Source of the DNA: Scenedesmus sp. PABB004
Taxonomy: Eukaryota
DNA: 64,000 bases
Assembly: GCA_014905635.1 (NCBI GenBank)
Contig: CM026548.1
Span: forward strand, 1,488,001 to 1,552,000
Direction of reading: 5' to 3'
The notes below the pieces were generated by a model. That model had not been told where the DNA came from and ran no database searches. It was given only the letters and a program-made list of their open reading frames with translations. A program made the position numbers and the translations under genes. Of the stretch, positions 31,942 through 57,600 are shown one piece after another (position 1 is the stretch's first letter; each line of letters starts with the position of its first letter).

Positions 31942-34126
31942 TCAGCAGCCGCCCACGACCGCCTGGCTGCGCTCGTTGGAGTTGCGGCGCGGCGGCGTGC
32001 CGGGCAGCGCGGCGCCAGCGCCGCTGGCCGCGACCGGCGCGTTGCGCGCGCCGCCGCGGCTGCAGGCCTGGGACGCCTTGCCGCCCTTGAACAGCCTGTC
32101 GAGCTTGGCCCGCGTCGCCGCGACGGCGCCGCTGATCACCGCCAGGCTGCGCGACGCGCTGCCCTTGTTGTTGATGGGCGCACGCAGCTCCAGCGCGGCG
32201 GCCAGCTGGCCCTTGACGCTCTCGAGCTCGGCGCCGGCGGCGGCGCGCGCGTCATTGGCCTCCTTGAGCGCGCCGTGCGCCGCCACCAGGCACGTGCACA
32301 GCTCTTGGTCGTCCTGGGCGTCGGCCTGCGCACACGCATGCAGCCGCGCCCAGGGCGCACCGCGGCGTGAGCGGCGCAGCGCGCCCGGGCTGGCAGCAGG
32401 CGCGGGGCGTGCGGGCGCGGCGGCGGCAGGAGCGCGCGCGCGGCGGCGCCGGTCGGGGCCGCGCACCCAGATGTGGCCCTCGCCGTGCACCATCATGCAA
32501 TACGCGCTCCAGTCCTTGACGGAGCGGCACTCGATCTTGAGGGCGTAGACGGCGTCGTTCAGGTTCTTCTCGCGCACGGCGGCGGCGGCGAGCGCGTCGT
32601 GGGCGCCCTGCAGGCCGTGCTCCGCCTCGGCCAGGCGCGCGCGCAGGTCGGCTGTCTCGGCCGCGGCAGCCTGCGCGCATGCAGGGGGCACAGAGCGGCG
32701 TGAGCAGGGCAGCAGGGGGCAAGGCGTGGCAGGGCCCAGCACCAGCAGGGAGGGGGCAGCAGCAGGAGCGCACGCGGCGGCGGACAGGGCAGCGCACCGT
32801 GAGGGAGTCGCACGTGGCGTGGCACAGCGCCGCGTAGGCGACCGCGGTCTGCATCGTCTGGCTCGCGTCGGCGAGCTCGCCGCGCAGGCAGGCGATGTTG
32901 GCGGCGTCCATCTCCGCGTGCATGGCGGTGGCGGCGAGCGCGTCCTTGGCCTCCTTCAGCTCGCGCTGCATCTCCGCCGCGCGCTCGCTCACGTCGCGCG
33001 CGCCGGCCTGCGCGCGCGCAGGGAGGGGGGGGGGCACAGCGCAGCGCAGCGTGAGCGGGGCAGCGCGCATGGGCTGGGCCCAGCAGCAGGCAGGGGCCAG
33101 CAGGAGCGCGCGCGGCGGCGGTCAGGGCAGCGCACCGCGCAGGCGTCGTGCGCGGTCTGGCAGGCCTTGGCGTCGTCGCGCGCGCGCGCGAGGTCGGCGC
33201 GCAGGCTGGCGATGACCGCGTTGTCGGCCTCAGCGCGCGCCTTGGCCGCGGCGCGCTCGTCCTTGACGCCCTGCAGCGCGCGCTCCAGCACGCCCACGTG
33301 CGCGCGCAGGTCGGGCGCCTCGGCCGCGTCGGCCTGCGCAGGGGCACCGCGCAGCGCGGCTGGCCGTGAGCAGGGCAGCGCGCGCGGCCTGGCAGGCCCA
33401 GCAGCAGGCGCGTGGCGGCGGTACGAGCCCGCGCGGCGGCGCGCAGCGCACCAGGAGGCCGGCGCGCGTGGTGTCGCAGGCGTTGGCGTAGTCGCGCGCG
33501 CTCTCGAGCTTGGCGAGCAGCCTGGCGACGTCGGCCTTGCCACGCGCGTTGGCGACGGCGAGCGCGGCCTTGGTGCTTGCGAGCTCGGCGCGCAGGTCCG
33601 CGACCTGGGCGCGCAGGTCCACGACCTCGGCGCACAGGGCCTCGCCCTCGCCGGCGGCGGCCGGCTTGGCGGCGCTCGCCGTCGGGGCCGCCGCGATGGC
33701 GTGGTGGTGGGCGCTGGGCATGGCGGAGGTGGAAGAGGCCCGGCGGGCGGTGCGCCCGCGAGGGCCGCGCGCGTGGGCCTGCGGCGCCTTGTTGTTGGCC
33801 TGCGCGGCAGCCGGGAGCGACAGGCAGGGGCGCGTGGGTGAGCTGCAGCGCGCAGTGAGAGGGCGTTGGGCAGCTGGCGGGGAGCTGGGCTGGCCGTCGC
33901 GCGAGCCAGTGGGCGGCGCTACTGTTGTGCTGGCGCGGCGCGCTGGCAGCGTGTGGCGCCGTGGCGCCGCGTGGGGATGTGCGTTCGACTGTATGAGCGG
34001 CTTGGCGGCGGCCGTCGGCGCCTCTGGTGCCCCCGGCGCTCGGCAGGGAGCTCTCGCGCGCAGCCGCTCCCCCCCGCGCCGCCCCGCCCTCACCAGCTGG
34101 CGGCGGCTGATGCGGGAGGTATACAT
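31942..34126 (-). CDS. Hypothetical coiled-coil protein built from repeated phase-0 exons
   Basis: MYTSRISRRQL|ANNK..., then exons 33136-33333, 32798-33007 and 32467-32670 with heptad-rich sequence (DLRA..AE/LR.ELA). Stop at 31942. Confidence 0.65.
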
Positions 34127-48181: not shown

Positions 48182-48933
48182 TCACCGCTCAGACGCAGCC
48201 CCGAACACCAGCCACAGCCCCAAGCACAGACCGCAGCCCGGCGCCGCCAGCCCACCGCCGCGAGCGCGCAGCGCAGGCGAGCGCCGACCGCCGCCGATCG
48301 CCGTCGCCCGACCGCCGCTGCCGCGCCCGGCTGCAGCTCCGTCAGAGGCGCTGAGCACGAGCAGCGTCGCCATGGCGGGCGCGCGCCCAAAGTACTTCAC
48401 CAGCGCCGCGTCGCACGCGGGGTCGGTGTGCGCCGCGAGGTAGCGCGCAAAGTCGGGCGACATGCCGGGCACGCGCGGCGCCGCCGCCGCGGCCGCCTGC
48501 CCCGCCAGCGGCGCGCCCGGGGCGCCGCCGCCCTCGGCGCCGCCGCCGGGCAGCACGAGCTCCGCCACGCGGCGCAGGTAGCGCGCCGGCGCGGGGCAGC
48601 CCGGCGCCGCCGCGGCGGCGACGCACGCGCGCGCGGTCGACTCGCGGTACTGCGCCGCGCGGCTGCGCATCGGCCAGACGGGGACGAGGTCGAGGCACGC
48701 CGCTGACCGCCGCCTGCACGAGGTGGCGCTGGATCGCGCCGCGCTCGTAGACCTGCCCCAGCGCGTTGCAAACCGGGTCCTGGAACTGCGGGGGGCGCAC
48801 GCGGCCGCGGCGAGCGGGCGCGCGGGGTGAAGGGCGGGAGAGCGCAGCGCGGCGGGCCGGGCCGCCGCCGCACCAGGCAGAGCGTGATGGGGCACAGCAT
48901 GTCGGGCGGCGTGTGGAACAGGTGCTCGTCCGC
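48182..48933 (-). pseudogene. 5'-truncated, frameshifted U-box protein gene
   Basis: DEHLFHTPPDMLCPITLCL|intron 48786-48873|FQDPVCNALGQVYERGAIQRHL, then a frame change near 48695 to DLVPVWPMRSRAAQYRE. The N-terminal coding part is missing upstream. Confidence 0.7.
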
Positions 48934-49053
48934 GTCTTCCAGATGTCCATCACATAATCTGCCACAGAGTGAACAGCAAGCTGATCCTGCAGCAGGTCAC
49001 CAAGCAGATAACGCCGAGCCTGCTCCAGTGCTGCACACCGCGTTTGCGTCTAC

Positions 49054-49329
49054 ATGCCGGTGAGCGCCAGCGGCACCGGCGCGCCCGCAGGCGGCCAGCC
49101 GCTGGGCGGCGGCGGCGCCATCAGCGTGTCGACCTCCACGCCGGTGACGGTCGTCGCGCCGATCAACGTGACCACGCCGCTGACGCAGACGACTGTGCAG
49201 GCCGGCGGCGGCGGGGGCGGGCTGAGCGACGGCTGGCGGGACCAATGGGCGCGAGCCTGGCTGGTCGCGGCGGCGCTCAAGCCGCGCCTCGTGGTCGCGC
49301 CGATCCTGCTGCCGCTCGGGCGGCGGTGA
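49054..49329 (+). CDS. Small 91-aa hypothetical protein or captured gene fragment
   Basis: ATG-to-TGA ORF with strong G/C third-position bias; Thr/Val/Pro-rich segment and hydrophobic C-terminus. Confidence 0.4.
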   Translation: MPVSASGTGAPAGGQPLGGGGAISVSTSTPVTVVAPINVTTPLTQTTVQAGGGGGGLSDGWRDQWARAWLVAAALKPRLVVAPILLPLGRR

Positions 49330-50813
49330 CGGGGGTACGGGCGTAAACTCACGCCTCCGGCGGCGGCGCAGGCGGACAGCGACGAGCCCCGGGCAGCGCG
49401 CGCCGCAGCCTGCCCGCGCCGCCCCCGCCGGCGCCGCCAGGCTCCCCCGGCGCGCGGGCAGGCGTGATTTGCGCCGGCCGCACCGTCTCACGGTCCCGGC
49501 GCTGGGCCCGCGGGTTTGCGGCGCTGCTGTCAGCCTCGGCGCGCTCAACCCTGCCGCTCGTGTCGGCGCCCCAGAGCTCGGTGACAGTCCGCCCAGGGTA
49601 CGGCGCGTGTTTTACCGAACATCCCTGCGCCGCGCCGCACCGGCTGGCCTTGAAGATCTCTGGCTCGCTCGGCGCGGCCGTGCATCGGCCTGGCACCTGC
49701 GTGGAGCGCCTGCGCACTGCGTGGTGCTGCACGCGTGCCAGCCGCGTGCGCCGGCCGCGTGCCGCGGGCGGCGCCCTGCGCGGCGGCACGGCGGCGCAGC
49801 GGGCGCGCGGGGTGCGTGAGCGCGCGCGGGCGCCGGCGCCTCCCTCGCGCGCCGCGCGGGCGGGCGGGCAGGGCGCGCCACGCCGGGTCCCCTGCGCGGG
49901 GAGGGTGGGAGGGAGTCGCGGGCACTACGAGGCGGCGGCGCGCGGGGCGGGCAGCGGGGCATAGTTGGCGCGTGAGCGGCAAGCGGCGAGCGCGCGGCGT
50001 GCGCGCGGCGGAGGGAGGGAGGAGCGCGGCGCCGCCAAGCACGCGCGCGGCAGGCGGGGCGCGCGGCCCGCGGCCCCCCACTGCGGGGCGCTGCACGACT
50101 GCGTGTGCGCAGCACACGGTCGCGTAGCGCCCCGCAGGGGGGGGGGCCGCGCCCGGCGCCCGGCGCGCGGCCCCCCTCTTCAACAGCAGAGGCAGCGCGG
50201 CGTCACTGAGCTCGGCTCGCCCGCCTCGGCCGCGGCCGCCTCGTCAGCAGCGTGCTGATCGCTGCCGCCGGATAAGCTTGCTGTTCACTCGGTGGCGGAT
50301 TATGTGATGGACATCTGGAAGATGCGGGACACCGTCCTTAAGGGGCGCGGGACCAATGGGCGCGAGCCTGTGGTGTAACTATCTTTGTCTTTGTCTTTTT
50401 AAACGCCGCCACCGGTGGCGCGGCGACCGGCACCGGCCAGATGGCCGGCAGCGCCGCCAGCACCGCCAGCGCCGCCGCCGCGCTTCCTGCTGACCGCCTG
50501 TCGGGCGGGGCCGCGCGGCAGCGGCAGCGGCCGGCGGTGTGTGGGCGGCAGCGGCGGGGGGGGGGGGGGGGGGGCGGCAGCGCCTGCAGCGGCAGTGATT
50601 GCCCGGGCCACCTGCGTCACGGCGGCGCAGCGAAAACCGCCGCTCGGCGGCGCTGCGCGGGGGCATCCCCGCCGCCTGCGCAGCCCGCGACCAGACAGCG
50701 ACCAGCCCTCGACACCCGCGCCCGGCCACGCCTTCGCTGCGACACCCCGCGCCAACCGCCGAGCGGCGCCGGCGCCGCGCGCAGGCCGCGCGCCCCCGCG
50801 GCGGGCCGGCGAC

Positions 50814-51301
50814 ATGCTGGGCCACAGCCTGAGCCTTGACGGCGGCAAGGGCAGCGCCGGCGGCGCGGCGCCGGGCGTCTGGGCGGCGGCGGCGGCGACG
50901 GCGGCGCAGCAGCAGCCCGGCGCGCCGGCGCCGCACCAGGCGGCGGCGGGCCCGCCGCAGGCGCCGGCGGCGGACGAGCACCTGTTCCACACGCCGCCCG
51001 ACATGCTGTGCCCCATCACGCTGCTGCTCGCCGGCGCGGCGGGGTGCGGCCGCAGCAGCGCTGCTCGCTCGCCGCCGCGGGACGGGGCGGCCGCGCCGGC
51101 CGGCGGCAGCGGCCCCCACGCGCCCCCAGGAGTCTCACGCGCCCCCAGGAGTCTCACGCGCCCCCAGGAGGCCCACGCGCCCCTGAACCTGCTCCGCCGC
51201 CGCAACCGCCGCAGGGCGGCGGCGCTGCTGCGCCGACGGCGCGCCGGCCCGCCGGCGGCGCCGGAGCCGCAGCCGCACGCGCAGCAGCAGCAGCCGCCGC
51301 C

Positions 51302-51356
<55 letters not shown>

Positions 51357-52590
51357 CCGGCGCCGCACGCCGTCGAGGCTGAGGTGGCGCGGCTGCGGGC
51401 CGCGTACGGCGCGATGGCGGCAGACTTCTCCCGGCACGGCCTGGACCTCGCCGCCGTCGCGGACGCGGGCGCGTGGTTTGACACGGCCCCCACGCCGCCC
51501 TGGCCGCGCGCGTATTCTGGCTTCCGGCCCAAGCCGCTGCCGCCCGGCGCGGTGCGCCTGGTCGTGGTGCCGCTCGCGCCCGCCGCGCCGCGGCTCGCGG
51601 GCGCGGCGCTGGGGCTGGCGCGCGAGGTCATGGCGGCGCTGCCGGGGTGCAAGGTGCGCGCCGCCGCTCGCCGCTTGCCGAGGGCGGCGCCCGCGCCCGC
51701 GCCGCGCGCGCCGCGCCGCGGGCGTCCGCCGCCTGCCCGGCCGACGCCACACGTGCGCCGCGCCGCGCCGCGCCGCGCGGCAGGTGTTTGCCAACGCGCG
51801 GCAGAACCTCCACATCACCCTCTTTCACTTCAGCCACCCGGCAGACACGCGGCCGGACGCGATGTGCCCGCGCAGCGGCCTCGGCGGCGCCACGGCGGCG
51901 CCGCCGGCGCCCGCCGAGCGCCCGGGGCCGACGCCGGCACAGGTCGCGGCGGAGCAGGCGGCGGCGGCGCGCGTCGCGGCCGCGGCGCAGCCGTTCACGC
52001 TGACGGTGCGCGGGCGCGCGCGCGTGGGGGCGGCGGTGGAGCGCGTCCCCGCCCGGCGCCGGCCGGCCACCCGCCGCCGACGCGCGCCTGCACCCGCACC
52101 GCCGCCGCCGCCCGCAGCTGGAGCGCGTGCTGCTGGCGCGCTCGGGCGTGCTGCTGCTGCTGTGGGTGGACGCCAGCGGCGCGGTCACGCGGCTGCGGCG
52201 CGCGCTGGCGGCTGCGTTCCCGGGCGCCTGCAGCCGGCAGGCGTCGATCATTCACACAAGCGTGCTCCGCGTCGTCGCAACGCCGGCGCCCGGCGGCGAG
52301 GCGGGCGGGCAGCTGGACGCCGGGTCAGTCGCGGCGATCGACGCGGCGTGCGAGCGCTGGACGGCCAAGGTGGGCAGGCGCGGGCCGCGCCGGGGCGGCC
52401 GCGCCGCCGCACACAGCGCGCGCGCCGCCCGACGCGGCCTCGGGGCCGACACCGTCGCCGCGGGCGCCGCGCGCAGCTCCGCGGCACGCCGCTGCACGTG
52501 GCGCAGCTGTGGTGGGTCGAGGAGCGGACGTTCAGCACGATCGAGGGCGAGCGCCTGCCCCTGGCGCTGGGCAACGGGCTGCTGAACTAG
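50814..52590 (+). CDS. 2H-phosphoesterase (LigT/CPDase-like) protein with chimeric N-terminus derived from the U-box gene
   Basis: Two His motifs, NLHITLF and IIHTSVL, on spliced exons. The N-terminal exon carries DEHLFHTPPDMLCPITL and a polyQ tract. Stop TAG at 52590 followed by TGTAA. Confidence 0.7.
51117..51183 (+). repeat. 19-bp tandem repeat x3.5 (cacgcgcccccaggagtct)
   Basis: Units 51117-51135, 51136-51154, 51155-51173 plus a partial unit. Confidence 0.9.
51303..51353 (+). repeat. (CAG)n poly-Gln tract
   Basis: About 17 Gln codons. Confidence 0.95.
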
Positions 52591-52618: not shown

Positions 52619-52623
52619 TGTAA
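52619..52623 (+). promoter_or_regulatory. TGTAA polyadenylation signal of the 2H gene
   Basis: About 28 nt after TAG 52590. Confidence 0.5.
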
Positions 52624-52703: not shown

Positions 52704-54639
52704 GGCGCGCCGGCGGGTGCGCTGGACGGCGGGCGGGCGGCGCGGGAGTGGGGCGTGCGCGGCGCGCCGCGGTGTGGTCCTGGCCGCGCTGCGGGTGTCC
52801 TGACGTGGCCGCCGGTCGCCCTGCTGTGCGCGCGCGGCCTGCGTGCACTCCGACGACGTGCAGTCACGCGCCCGTCATCCGCGGCGCGGCTGCTTGGGAC
52901 CGCCGCCCGCTGCCAGCGGCCCGCCAGCGGCGGCCCGCCAGGGGCTGCGGCGGCAGACGCGCCTCGGTAGCAGCCGGTCCTGGGCGGTGAGTTGCGCGCC
53001 TCGTCGTGGCGGCAGCAGCACCGCACCGACTGCTGGCAGGCTCGTGCTGCCCCAGCCCTCACATCGCCCGGTGCTGTCGGGGGCGGGGGAGTCAGCAGGC
53101 CTGACGCCGCCCCACGCCGCCCTGGCCGGGCGCTTGCGCAGCGGGCTTCGGTCCCTCGCCGCTGCCGCCCGGCGCGGTGCGCCTGGTCCTGGTGCCGCTG
53201 GCCCCGCCGCACCGCGGCTCGCGGGCGCGGCGCTGGGGCCAGCGGCACGCTGAGCACTCGGGTACAAGGGCGCGCCGCCGCTCGCCGGGCCGGCCGTGGC
53301 AGGTGAGGCGTCTGCTGCTGAAGCCGCCGCCGCAGCGGTGGCGCTCGTGCGGGCGCGGCGCCGAGCACGGCGCGAGCTGCGCCCGCCGTCCCGCGCGCGG
53401 GCGCTCGCTGCCAGCGGCGAGGGGCGCTGCCTGCTGCTTCCAGGGCGCTCTGCCGCGTCGTAGCAGCTTCAGCAGTCGATATCACGCCCCGCGAGCCGGA
53501 GCCGGCTGCTGCTGGGCGGGGGCGGCCGGCGCGGCGCCGGCATGTCCCGCGCCGCCTGAGCTCGCGAGCCTTCAATCGCACGATCTCGCCCCGCTGGCGC
53601 GCTGGGAGCTTAGACGACATGCCCAGGTACATCGAGGCACCAGGGGGAATCGTGGGTATGGGGGTCTACGCGGAGCACTCGACGCCGCCGCTGTTCGCTC
53701 GCTGCTGGCGCGGCGGTGACCCCCATACTCACGATTCCCCCTGGTGGCTCGATGTACCTGGGCATGTCGTCTAAGCTCCCAGCGCGCCAGCGGGGCGAGA
53801 TCGTGCGATTGAAGGCTCGCGAGCTCAGGCGGCGCGGGACATGCCGGCGCCGCGCCGGCCGCCCCCGCCCAGCAGCAGCCGGCTCCGGCTCGCGGGGCGT
53901 GATATCGACTGCTGAAGCTGCTACGACGCGGCAGAGCGCCCTGGAAGCAGCAGGCAGCGCCCCTCGCCGCTGGCAGCGAGCGCCCGCGCGCGGGACGGCG
54001 GGCGCAGCTCGCGCCGTGCTCGGCGCCGCGCCCGCACGAGCGCCACCGCTGCGGCGGCGGCTTCAGCAGCAGACGCCTCACCTGCCACGGCCGGCCCGGC
54101 GAGCGGCGGCGCGCCCATGTACCCTAGTGCTCAGCGTGCCAGGCCCCAGCGCCGCGCCCGCGAGCCGCGGCGCGGCGGGGGCCAGCGGCACCACGGCCAG
54201 GCGTACCGCGCCAGGAGGCGGCGGCTTGGTGTGGAAGCCCACGCACCGGCCAGGCGGCGCAGGCCTGCTGACTCCCGCGCCCCCGACAGCACCGGGCGAT
54301 GTGAGGGCTGGGGCAGCACGAGCCTGCCAGCAGTCAGTGCGGTGCTGCCGCCACGACGAGGCGCGCAACTCACAGGACCGGCCGCTGCCGAGGTGCGTCT
54401 GCCGCCGCAGCCCCTGGCGGGCCGCTGGCGGCGGGCGGCGGTCCCCAGGCAGCCGCGCCGCGGATGACGGGCGCGTGACTGCGCGCGTCGTCAGAGTGCA
54501 CGCAGGCCGCGCGTACAGCAGGGCGACCGGCGGCCACGTCAGTACAACCGCAGCGCGGCAGGGCCACACCGCGGCGCGCCGCGCACGCCCCGCACTCCCG
54601 CGCCGCCCGCCCGCCGTCCAGCGCACCCGCCGGCGCGCC
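52704..54639. repeat. Long inverted repeat/foldback: arms ~52704-53666 and ~53718-54639, 51-nt loop
   Basis: The arms are reverse complements. ORFs 52532..53632(-) and 53716..54936(+) share about 124 identical translated residues. Centre reads gtatgggggtc[loop]gacccccatac. Confidence 0.95.
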
Positions 54640-54697: not shown

Positions 54698-57600
54698 ATG
54701 GACCCCGCCACGGTGCGCCCCACGCGTCGCCCGGCAATGCCCCGCGTGCCCTGCGCCCGGCTCCGGGACCCGCCGGCCCGGCGCGCCGCCGGGGTGGGGC
54801 TCATCCCTCGCCCCCGCTGCTGCTGCTGCCGCCCCGCCCGCCCGGGCCGCCCGCGGCCCGCAGACGCGCCCGAGCAGCAAGCATGACGCGCCCTACTGGA
54901 CCACCAACAGCGGCGCGCCGGTGTGGAACAACCTGAACAGCCTCACCGTCGGCCCGCGCGGCCCCATCCTGCTTGAGGACTACCACCTCGTGGAGAAGCT
55001 GGCCAACTTTGACCGCGAGCGCATCCCCGAGCGCGTCGTCCACGCGCGCGGCGCCGCGGCAAAGGGCTTCTTCGAGGCGCGCGCGCGCGCCGCAGCGCCG
55101 CGCGGCGCCGCGCCGCCGCTGCCGCCGCCGCCGCCGCCTGCGCCCAACGCCGCGCCGCCCCACGCCGCCGCCGCAGGTGACGCACGACGTGAGCCACCTG
55201 ACCTGCGCCGACTTCCTGCGCGCGCCGGGCGTGCAGACGCCCGTGATCGTGCGCTTCAGGTGCGCACCTGCGCACGGGCCGGGGGGCTGGGCGGGGCGCT
55301 GCGCCCCGCTCTCGTGCCCCGCCGCGGCCCCTGCCTGCCCCCCCCCCCCACACACACACACCCGCCCGCCCCGCGCGCCCCGCCCGCCCCGCCCGCCCCA
55401 CGCGCGCAGCACGGTCATCCACGAGCGCGGCAGCCCCGAGACGCTGCGCGACCCGCGCGGGTTTGCGGTCAAGTTTTACACGCGCGAGGGCAACTTCGAC
55501 CTGGTCGGCAACAACATGCCGGTGCGACCCCGGCAGGGGTGGTGGGGTGTGTGGGGGGGGGGGGGGGTGAGGGAGGCGTGGTGGTGGTGGGGTGTGAGCG
55601 AGGCGGGCGCGCTGGCGCGGGCCGGCCGGCGGCGCTGCCGCTGCGCCAGCGCGCGGCGCCCGCGCCCGTCCCCCCCGCCCCGCCGCCCACTAAACCCGGC
55701 CTCGTCCCTCGCTCGTCCCTCGCCCACTAAACCCGGCCTCGTCCCTCGCCCCGCCGCAGGTGTTTTTCATCCGCGACGGCATCCAGTTCCCCGACATGGT
55801 CCACGCGCTCAAGGTGCGCGGCTGGCTGTGGCGCCTGTGGCGCCGGGCGGGCAGGAGGGCAGGGAAGCGGGGCTGGCTGCACCGCGCACGCTGCGCCGCG
55901 CCGCGCCCCCCGCCCCAACATGCCTGCCCCGGCACGCACCTTCGCCCGCGCGCGCGCGCGCGCGCGCAGCCCAACCCCAAGTCCCACATCCAGGAGGGGT
56001 GGCGCATCGCCGACTTTTTCAGCCACCACCCCGAGGCCCTGCACATGGTGCGCGGGCGCGGCGTGCGAGGCCCGCGCGCGCGCGCCCCGCCCCCCTCTCT
56101 TGCTGCCCCTCCCGCTCCTAAACCCTCGCCCGCCCGCCCCGCCCCTAAACCCTGCCGCCAGTTTACGTTCCTGCTCGACGACGTGGGCGTGCCCCTCAAC
56201 TACCGCCACATGGAGGGCTTTGGCGTGCACACCTTCACGCTGCTCGCGCCCTGCGGCCGCGAGACGCTCGTCAAGTTCCACTGGAAGCCAACCTGCGGTG
56301 CGGGGGGGGGGGGGGGGGTGGCGGCTGCGGGGCGGGCGTGGCACTGCCGCTGCCGCTGCTGCCCACCCCACCCACCCACCCACCCACCCACACACGCACA
56401 CGCACACGCACCGCCGCCCAGGCGTCAAGTGCCTGCTGGAGGACGAGGCGGTCGCCGTGGGCGGCGCCAACCACTCCCACGCCACGCAGGCGCGGCCCGG
56501 CGCGGCGCGGCGCCTGGCCGCACGCCCCGCGCGCCGCTCGCCGCGCGGCCGTCCGCCCTGAACCCTGCCCCCCTGCCGTCGCCCTAAACCCTGCCCCCCC
56601 CCCCCCACAGGACCTGTACGACGCCATCGCGGCGGGCGACTACCCCGAGTGGACGCTGCACATCCAGACCATGGACCCCGCGGACCAGGACAAGTGCGGG
56701 CGCGGCGCGGCGCACGCGGCGGCGCGCGGCGCGCTCGGTAGCCGCGCCTTCGTCGCCCGCGCGCCGCCGCGCCCCCTCTCCCCCTCCGCCCCCTTCCAAC
56801 ACCCCCCCCCCCCTCTACCACCCCCCCCCCCAGGTTTGACTTTGACCCGCTCGACGTGACCAAGACGTGGCCCGAGGACGCGTTCCCGCTGCACCCCGTA
56901 GGGCGGCTCGTGCTGAACCGCAACCCCGACAACTTTTTCAACGACAACGAGCAGCTCGCCTTCTGCCCCGCCCTCGTCGTGCCCGGTGCGCGGGCGGGAG
57001 GATGCGGCCGGGGGGGGGAGCAGGCGGCCGGCCGGGCGCTGCGCTGCGCTGTGGGCCGCGCTTCCCATCCCCCCCCCCCCGCACACCCACTCACACTCGC
57101 ACACCCACCCGCACCCCCCCCCCCCGCGGCGCGCCCTAGGCGTGAGCTACAGCGACGACAAGCTGCTCCAGACGCGCATCTTCTCCTACGCCGACACGCA
57201 GCGCCACCGCCTGGGGCCCAATTACCTGCAGGCGCGCCCGCCCGCGCACACCACGCGCGGCTGCCCCGACCCCGCGCGCGCCCGCGCTGCCCCGGCCCCG
57301 CGCGCGCCGCGCGCCGCGCGCCGCCCGCCTGCCCGCCGGCGCGCCGCCTCACGCCGCCCCCTTTCTCCCTGCCCCACCCCGCGCAGCTGCCGGTCAACGC
57401 GCCGCGGTGCGCGACGCACAACAACCACCACGACGGGGCCATGAACTTCATGGAGCGCACCGAGGAGGTCAACTACTTCCCCTCGCGGTGCGCCAGCGCG
57501 TGTGTGTGTGTGGGGGCCCTGGCAGGGCTGGCAGGGCGGGCGGAGCTGGGCGAGCGGGGCGGGCGGGGCGGGCCGCGCGGGGCGCGACGGCACCCCGTGC

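Follow-up and report, generated by a model that had tools for sequence, protein, structure and literature searches.

Is a long foldback that lies directly behind a gene, and carries a piece of that gene in both of its arms, a small-RNA locus newly born from its target? Small-RNA genes of algae have a fast turnover, and little is documented about how they arise; the question is raised here by an inverted repeat of about 1.9 kb in a 64,000-nucleotide stretch of the Scenedesmus sp. PABB004 genome (the window, to which all positions without a prefix refer). A preliminary description had presented it as a young hairpin derived in part from the adjacent 2H-phosphoesterase gene, whose small RNAs could target that gene in cis. 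The foldback is real, but the comparisons reported below give it little resemblance to a regulator recently born from the 2H gene. The window is 79% G+C and belongs to an intron-rich genome of 40 Mb in 80 contigs; at 32220–33620 it also holds a lower-GC stretch with a diverged tandem repeat of ~350-bp period. The foldback consists of the following parts:

52704–53666, plus strand: left arm, 963 nt (self-BLAST and global alignment)
53667–53717, no strand: loop, 51 nt, with equal spacing and no gap in the paralogue on contig C67
53718–54639, minus strand: right arm, 922 nt (self-BLAST and global alignment)

The palindrome at 52704–54639 is the sole long one that self-BLAST detects in the window, with 90.1% identity. 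A stem scan of the window returned a stem of 433 nt at 98%, and global alignment of the arms placed the loop, in agreement with the arms of about 0.95 kb and the 51-nt spacer described earlier. The plus strand of 53240–54145 folds at −1113 kcal/mol (z = −74), and none of 20 shuffled sequences folded as well. Foldbacks with arms of at least 200 bp were absent from a blind sample of 59 stretches of 10 kb (590 kb on 12 contigs of the same genome), and one stretch held a foldback with arms of at least 100 bp; the count leaves out the stretch with the C67 hairpin itself and includes two that flank it. Two hairpins from this sample, L069:1664–1806 and L106:3798–4035, have arms of 71 and 123 bp and are unrelated to the family described here; the former looks like an ordinary pre-miRNA candidate.

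Polishing can erase small differences between arms, and the identity of the inner 369 bp is what an assembly fold-back artefact would have in its favour. The arms differ, however, at 31 substitutions and 15 indels, the loop is unique, the two flanks are unique and different, the contig extends 39 kb past the window, and another contig carries a paralogue of equal spacing. No signature of such an artefact, which the preliminary description had named as a possible refutation, was found, and we consider this explanation very improbable.

The differences between the arms are arranged in strata, the innermost but one being free of them:

53268–53636, plus strand: perfect stratum, 369 bp, identical to 53748–54116 inverted

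From the outside inward, the arms differ by 10 substitutions and 9 indels over the 323 bp of 52704–53026, by 19 substitutions and 6 indels over the 241 bp of 53027–53267, not at all over the 369 bp of 53268–53636, and at two positions over the 30 bp of 53637–53666. The foldback therefore contains a near-perfect intramolecular stem with 369 bp lacking any mismatch, and the earlier observation of an almost perfect inner ~400 bp with more diverged outer parts holds. Identity changes stepwise, from ~90% outside to 100% inside, and the chance of 369 clean bases at the outer rate is ~6 × 10−9. The step indicates that the inner stem is much younger than the outer arms, either in its making or in its last re-matching. 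Polishing may conceal about a percent of arm difference and cannot account for the step. CpG depletion was not found in the arms.

The gene that the foldback was proposed to derive from, and its remnants in the arms, map as follows:

51414–52590, plus strand: parent 2H-like gene, with four GT–AG exon blocks, two HxT/HxS motifs, a single copy and a putative start
52619–52623, plus strand: TGTAA, seen in the sequence, presumably the poly(A)-type signal of the 2H-like gene
53027–53287, plus strand: decayed 2H copy of the left arm, from 51412–51673, 78% identical to the gene
54097–54336, minus strand: decayed 2H copy of the right arm, inverted, 75% identical to the gene; perfect antisense matches of up to 37 nt (54143–54179)

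The HxT/HxS motifs, together with weak profile hints (Pfam E values of 0.15 and 0.019; Atlas leads at 0.86–0.89), suggest that the parent gene is 2H-phosphoesterase-like, and two unnamed metagenome homologues match it. Exon 1 had no homologue among 8000 candidates, so the start given for the gene is putative. We take TGTAA to be the poly(A)-type signal from its role in green algae; the left arm begins 80 nt past it, the distance given in the preliminary description.

Self-BLAST aligns 51488–51673 with 53110–53287 (81%) and with 54097–54259 inverted (79%), and a composition-aware alignment widens the left copy, pairing 51412–51673 with 53027–53287. Both methods thus confirm the decayed copy of the 2H gene reported in each arm. 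The copied stretch starts 2 nt before an in-frame ATG, spans exon 1 and ends 20 nt inside intron 1. Since it includes the exon 1/intron 1 junction (51653/51654), present in both arms without the T of the GT donor, the copy was made at the DNA level and is not a retrocopy, as had been proposed. It accounts for ~260 of the ~960 bp of each arm, the remaining ~700 bp having no match to the gene.

The age of this piece bears directly on whether the foldback is a young hairpin, born from the 2H gene, that silences it in cis through small RNAs. In favour of that origin, both arms carry the piece, the parent lies 1.6 kb away, and the longest perfect matches to the spliced 2H mRNA reach 37 nt in the right arm and 31 nt in the left, with 17 or 19 perfect 21-mers depending on the strand. 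Over 242 ungapped columns, however, identity to the gene is only 78% for the left-arm piece and 75% for the right-arm piece, so that the arms are not close to the parent over most of their length; 44 changes are common to both arms, 7 are left-only, 14 right-only and 3 differ three ways. The 44 common changes indicate that the piece decayed well before the arms parted, which leaves the description of the hairpin as young without support. The piece is also where the stem pairs worst, its 241 bp holding 19 substitutions and 6 indels against none in the next 369: perfect pairing starts where 2H homology ends, and the perfect stem lies inward of the target-derived part. Only the run 53212–53240 is both perfectly paired and matched to the 2H mRNA. 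Silencing of the 2H gene is possible and would at most be a side effect arising from the poorest part of the stem, and we hold the model of a young, 2H-born silencer improbable. Nor is an origin of the hairpin itself from the 2H gene supported, since the centre of the stem belongs to an older family of hairpins that bears no relation to 2H:

53483–53902, plus strand: hairpin core, 78% identical to G000:C67:989875–990375; no Rfam, Pfam or protein match

A genome-wide search with the left arm returned the partner arm, the 2H gene and two matches on C67 that lie 200 bp apart (79–80%), while the remaining 14 of 19 matches were short, GC-rich and had E values above 1e-8. The reverse search from C67 returned only the window and C67 loci, three sequence patterns found the same two loci only, and a profile search over 707 kb of the genome gave four matches, which are the four arms. 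The family is thus not high-copy; the count of two loci is a lower bound, as the DNA search omits very common words. The C67 sequence itself folds as a smaller hairpin, also with a loop spacing of 51 nt, and the two hairpins align gaplessly through their centres. This alignment shows that the core (a stem of ~190–240 bp with the 51-nt loop) and the C67 hairpin share one ancestral sequence. Beyond the C67 stem, homology scored 50.9 against a 95th percentile of 53.8 in the null, which is not significant.

Among 186 stem columns, 143 are invariant, 33 are locus-specific in both arms, none is side-specific and 10 vary in a single arm. The 33 locus-specific columns, set against the absence of arm-specific ones, argue that the arms were copied from each other. 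Late, separate formation of the arms at a fixed site would yield the same locus-specific pattern.

Both hairpins lie directly 3' of coding genes, and the flanking genes are unlike at the two loci. The C67 hairpin is flanked by the 3' ends of two convergent genes, one of them PAS/kinase-like, as read from open reading frames, and no TGTAA occurs on either strand from the stops to the stem. Translations of the upstream gene (L064:450–4585) show PAS/LOV-type segments followed by a Ser/Thr kinase. In the C67 hairpin (L004:1462–1962), the upper stem by the loop is a 21-nt duplex with a central 2-nt mismatch and is miRNA-duplex-like; GT and AG splice-like signals occur at about L004:1920 and 2080.

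A metagenome run, X1, holds one contig that covers 53720–53853 with 21 differences, 15 of them listed. Within 53750–53823, both window arms differ from X1 and C67 at 10 sites and both C67 arms stand alone at 3; 4 further sites are X1-only, 1 is three-state and 1 single-arm, in an unrooted comparison that counts unlisted sites as equal to the window. The contig therefore represents a third version of this part of the core outside the assembly, and it starts 2 nt from the inner end of the stem. Its depth (5.98, versus 3.2 and 2.1) was considered as a sign of collapsed arms; this was dropped, as contig depth does not equal copy number.

The two hairpins are most alike at the junction of stem and loop:

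53638–53693, plus strand: 56-nt block, 29 nt of stem and 27 nt of loop, identical to the C67 hairpin

This block is invariant though 47 of 236 columns differ between the loci. A run of this kind arose in 1 of 20000 random placements, a uniform-placement test that overstates the significance because the differences cluster. Selection on a small RNA or on a processing signal could explain the block; so could conversion between the loci, which would leave it identical without any selection. Half of it is loop, which would be atypical of a miRNA, and the window copy has lost the upper 11-bp stem formed in this region by the C67 hairpin. In the 3' half of the loop, 9 of 19 sites differ between the loci. 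A search for targets of the block gave three further sites at 3 mismatches versus one for the control, which is at chance level; none of the further block sites extends into a homologue. G:U pairs (11 versus 7 of 34) favour neither strand as the transcribed one.

The 18 locus-fixed changes in the ungapped block are distributed 11/6/1 over the three codon positions (p = 0.016), a periodicity that hints at an old coding source. Translated searches of the genome itself recovered only the four arms and proline-rich noise, and the sole match among 1.8 billion protein representatives was a tandem-repeat protein without a real alignment; neither search confirmed a coding ancestry of the core. Protein homologues of the core were found in none of 312 word-search candidates, in Pfam or in the Atlas. 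Rfam gave 6 matches at E values up to 1, all far under the gathering scores, and the core contains no tRNA genes. Two patterns had no match in viral contigs, and all 15 matches to an 18-mer in metagenome contigs were by chance, none being longer than 32 nt. One unrelated metagenome contig (L059:2998–3071) ends in a 74-nt near-perfect palindrome and carried the search pattern twice; this is either a chance match or a fold-back at the contig end.

These observations bear on a mobile-element relic, in which diverged, once-coding copies would have been folded back at the same site by site-specific snap-back, their arms forming late and separately. The codon-position bias, the divergence of the 3' half of the loop, the different flanking genes and a third variant in a contig that begins 2 nt from the inner end of the stem would all fit such a history. 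The family, however, comprises two loci only, with no target-site duplication (TSD) and outer ends that are not shared, no protein homologue appeared in any frame tried, and the 56-nt block lacks even silent changes. We rate a mobile origin as unlikely.

The outermost parts of the arms and the neighbouring catalase gene map as follows:

52704–53026, plus strand: outer stratum, left copy, an inverted copy of the DNA directly upstream of catalase; single-copy besides its partner
54337–54639, plus strand: outer stratum, right copy, ending 58 nt before the likely catalase ATG; probably promoter/5' UTR
54698–55076, plus strand: catalase 5' end, with putative exon 1 at 54698–54712, a GT–AG intron at 54713–54863 and exon 2 from 54864

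The exon at 54864 has no in-frame ATG back to the stop at 54465. The nearest fitting ATG, at 54698, gives a five-codon exon and a GT–AG intron that splices in frame, and a short first exon spliced in this manner is a feature of plant and algal catalases; the catalase N-terminus lies outside the coverage of the solved structures. Since the right arm ends 58 nt before this likely ATG, the outer arms are probably promoter DNA: the catalase promoter and part of the 5' UTR probably lie within 54337–54639, and the left arm probably holds an inverted copy of the catalase-upstream DNA that faces the 3' end of the 2H gene. The right-arm 2H piece and catalase are head to head around ~360 bp. The ~960-bp arms have thus captured a decayed 5' piece of the 2H gene and DNA from upstream of catalase. 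The outer ~780 bp of the arm have no further strong match in the genome, only the centre being common to both hairpins, and nothing in the window rose above the genomic null as a source of the outer and middle arm parts.

The DNA upstream of the 2H gene is a patchwork. A U-box gene is split across strands (48330–48933, minus; 50814–51022, plus), with an exact 53-bp inverted duplication at the break (48881–48933/50970–51022), and an open frame from 50814 runs from the U-box exon piece through a 19-bp tandem repeat and a CAG run into 2H exon 1, possibly as a chimeric gene. Three segments, 50262–50400 (plus), 48930–49040 (minus) and about 49238–49260 (plus), are 3'-end pieces of a repeat that occurs in at least 40 copies (90–96%) and has a short simple-repeat tail; it looks like the end of a non-LTR retroelement. 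Inverted duplications at inversion breakpoints are reported in flies (PMC1885836).

The whole foldback could be a neutral repair scar: a palindrome produced by template switching in a region prone to rearrangement and matched by DNA-level correction alone, with no function as RNA. The 2 kb upstream, with the split U-box gene, its 53-bp inverted duplication and inverted segments of the repeat present at least 40 times, are compatible with this history; arm matching needs no selection, as portions of PMC8794818 and PMC8600007 indicate, and no target of the conserved block was found. Yet long foldbacks are rare in this genome (none in the 59 stretches), and the core forms a hairpin at two unlinked loci that stand 22% apart with the loop spacing unchanged and a 56-nt block invariant. 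We regard a neutral scar as a minority possibility that deserves weight.

We tentatively favour, at close to an even chance, a composite locus of an old hairpin-RNA type whose arms grew by local inverted duplication and stay paired through copying of one arm from the other. The 2H gene and catalase may once have shared upstream DNA, until a rearrangement moved the working 2H gene; the 2H remnant and the promoter could then have been mirrored across the older hairpin, lengthening its arms by local inverted duplication in a rearranged region. Template switching or gene conversion would have re-matched the arms periodically, the latest round covering the inner 369 bp. This copying is our inference, with precedents at smaller (PMC8794818) and larger (PMC8600007) scales in the sections bearing on it. 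The locus would be transcribed in one of two ways. One is read-through of the 2H poly(A) signal, which may be rare because a good TGTAA precedes the hairpin; the other is initiation within the captured upstream DNA, possibly an old head-to-head 2H/catalase promoter firing inward from both arms. The foldback would then probably make double-stranded RNA. Dicer would cut the stem, mostly in its perfect part, with the loop-proximal block as the putative selected element, and small RNAs against 2H would be a minor by-product of a patch of ~30–80 nt. The genome contains Piwi matches at three loci and RNase III matches at three loci. Two tandem Piwi-domain genes lie ~6 kb apart at G000:C16:670248–677597.

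A bolder version, which as a whole we consider quite unlikely, treats the ~250-bp core as a self-maintaining hairpin module that is copied or moved to new sites behind genes. Such a module would keep its invariant loop-proximal block and 51-nt spacing, re-perfect its stem by arm-to-arm copying, and thereby grow at both ends, so that exons and promoters of its neighbours become part of double-stranded RNA. If true, silencing loci would arise from an old hairpin and not from the target gene, and an inverted catalase promoter would have been placed against the 3' end of the 2H gene.

The pair carries weight beyond this locus because it offers a seldom available record of a hairpin's history within one genome: one ancestor, two loci, 33 changes present in both arms, stepwise strata and outward growth over neighbouring genes. 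It is a compact case for testing whether long stems are kept by copying between arms at the DNA level or by selection on the RNA, and whether pieces of captured genes turn into guides for silencing. This is a structural finding in a single species. As judged from its structure, the foldback would work like a known kind; what most merits pursuit is its two-locus family, in which the arms change in concert and a loop-proximal block stays invariant.

One close counterpart is found in green algae. According to parts of PMC4817775, many Chlamydomonas DCL3 substrates are stem-loops in mRNA UTRs and the small RNAs seldom lower mRNA levels in trans; miRNA-like siRNA loci are a known class, LC3, in the corresponding part of PMC7676726. 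As at these loci, a long green-algal stem here lies by the 3' end of a coding gene, and Argonaute and RNase III genes are present in the genome. The foldback differs in its composite stem of ~960 bp, a putative source of small RNAs, and a two-locus family with arms changing in concert is not seen among the Chlamydomonas DCL3 loci described in those parts. Algal miRNAs are not expected to have cross-species Rfam matches, and the window hairpin likewise has none; most young miRNAs are argued to be neutral (both from portions of PMC5511227). A literature search turned up no report of this foldback or of concerted hairpin families in green algae.

Chimeric inverted repeats are also known from flies. 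D. simulans hpRNAs carry pieces of neighbouring genes, and Dsim-hp58 and hp-ODox1/2 resemble the foldback in holding in their arms a piece of ~200 bp from a gene that may be nearby or unrelated; there, the piece makes siRNAs and represses the parent (PMC10317233, relevant parts). In the window, in contrast, the 2H piece is old, mismatched and outside the best stem, and what the family shares is its centre.

In plants, young MIRNA genes are modelled as inverted duplications of their targets. This model is mentioned in a portion of PMC5511227. The foldback likewise carries a DNA-level copy of a neighbouring gene in its arms; here, however, the copy makes up 27% of the arm, is 22–25% diverged, and surrounds a centre of other origin. 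Foldback transposons and MITEs have long inverted repeats, and the foldback resembles them in this and in having a related copy at an unlinked site. In the two copies found here, by contrast, the centre is shared and the ends are not. The best TSD candidates at both loci lie inside the arms or have chance length (5–6 nt), and no terminal inverted repeats common to the copies were found. Neither the TSD nor the high copy number of the foldback transposon considered in the preliminary description was seen. Human Y palindromes are far larger than the ~1-kb arms studied here, which, around a 51-nt spacer, lie in scale between those palindromes and template-switch events of tens of bases. In the parts of PMC8600007 and PMC8794818 that describe them, Y palindromes and template-switch stems have arms that share changes and identity that falls into strata, as the foldback does.
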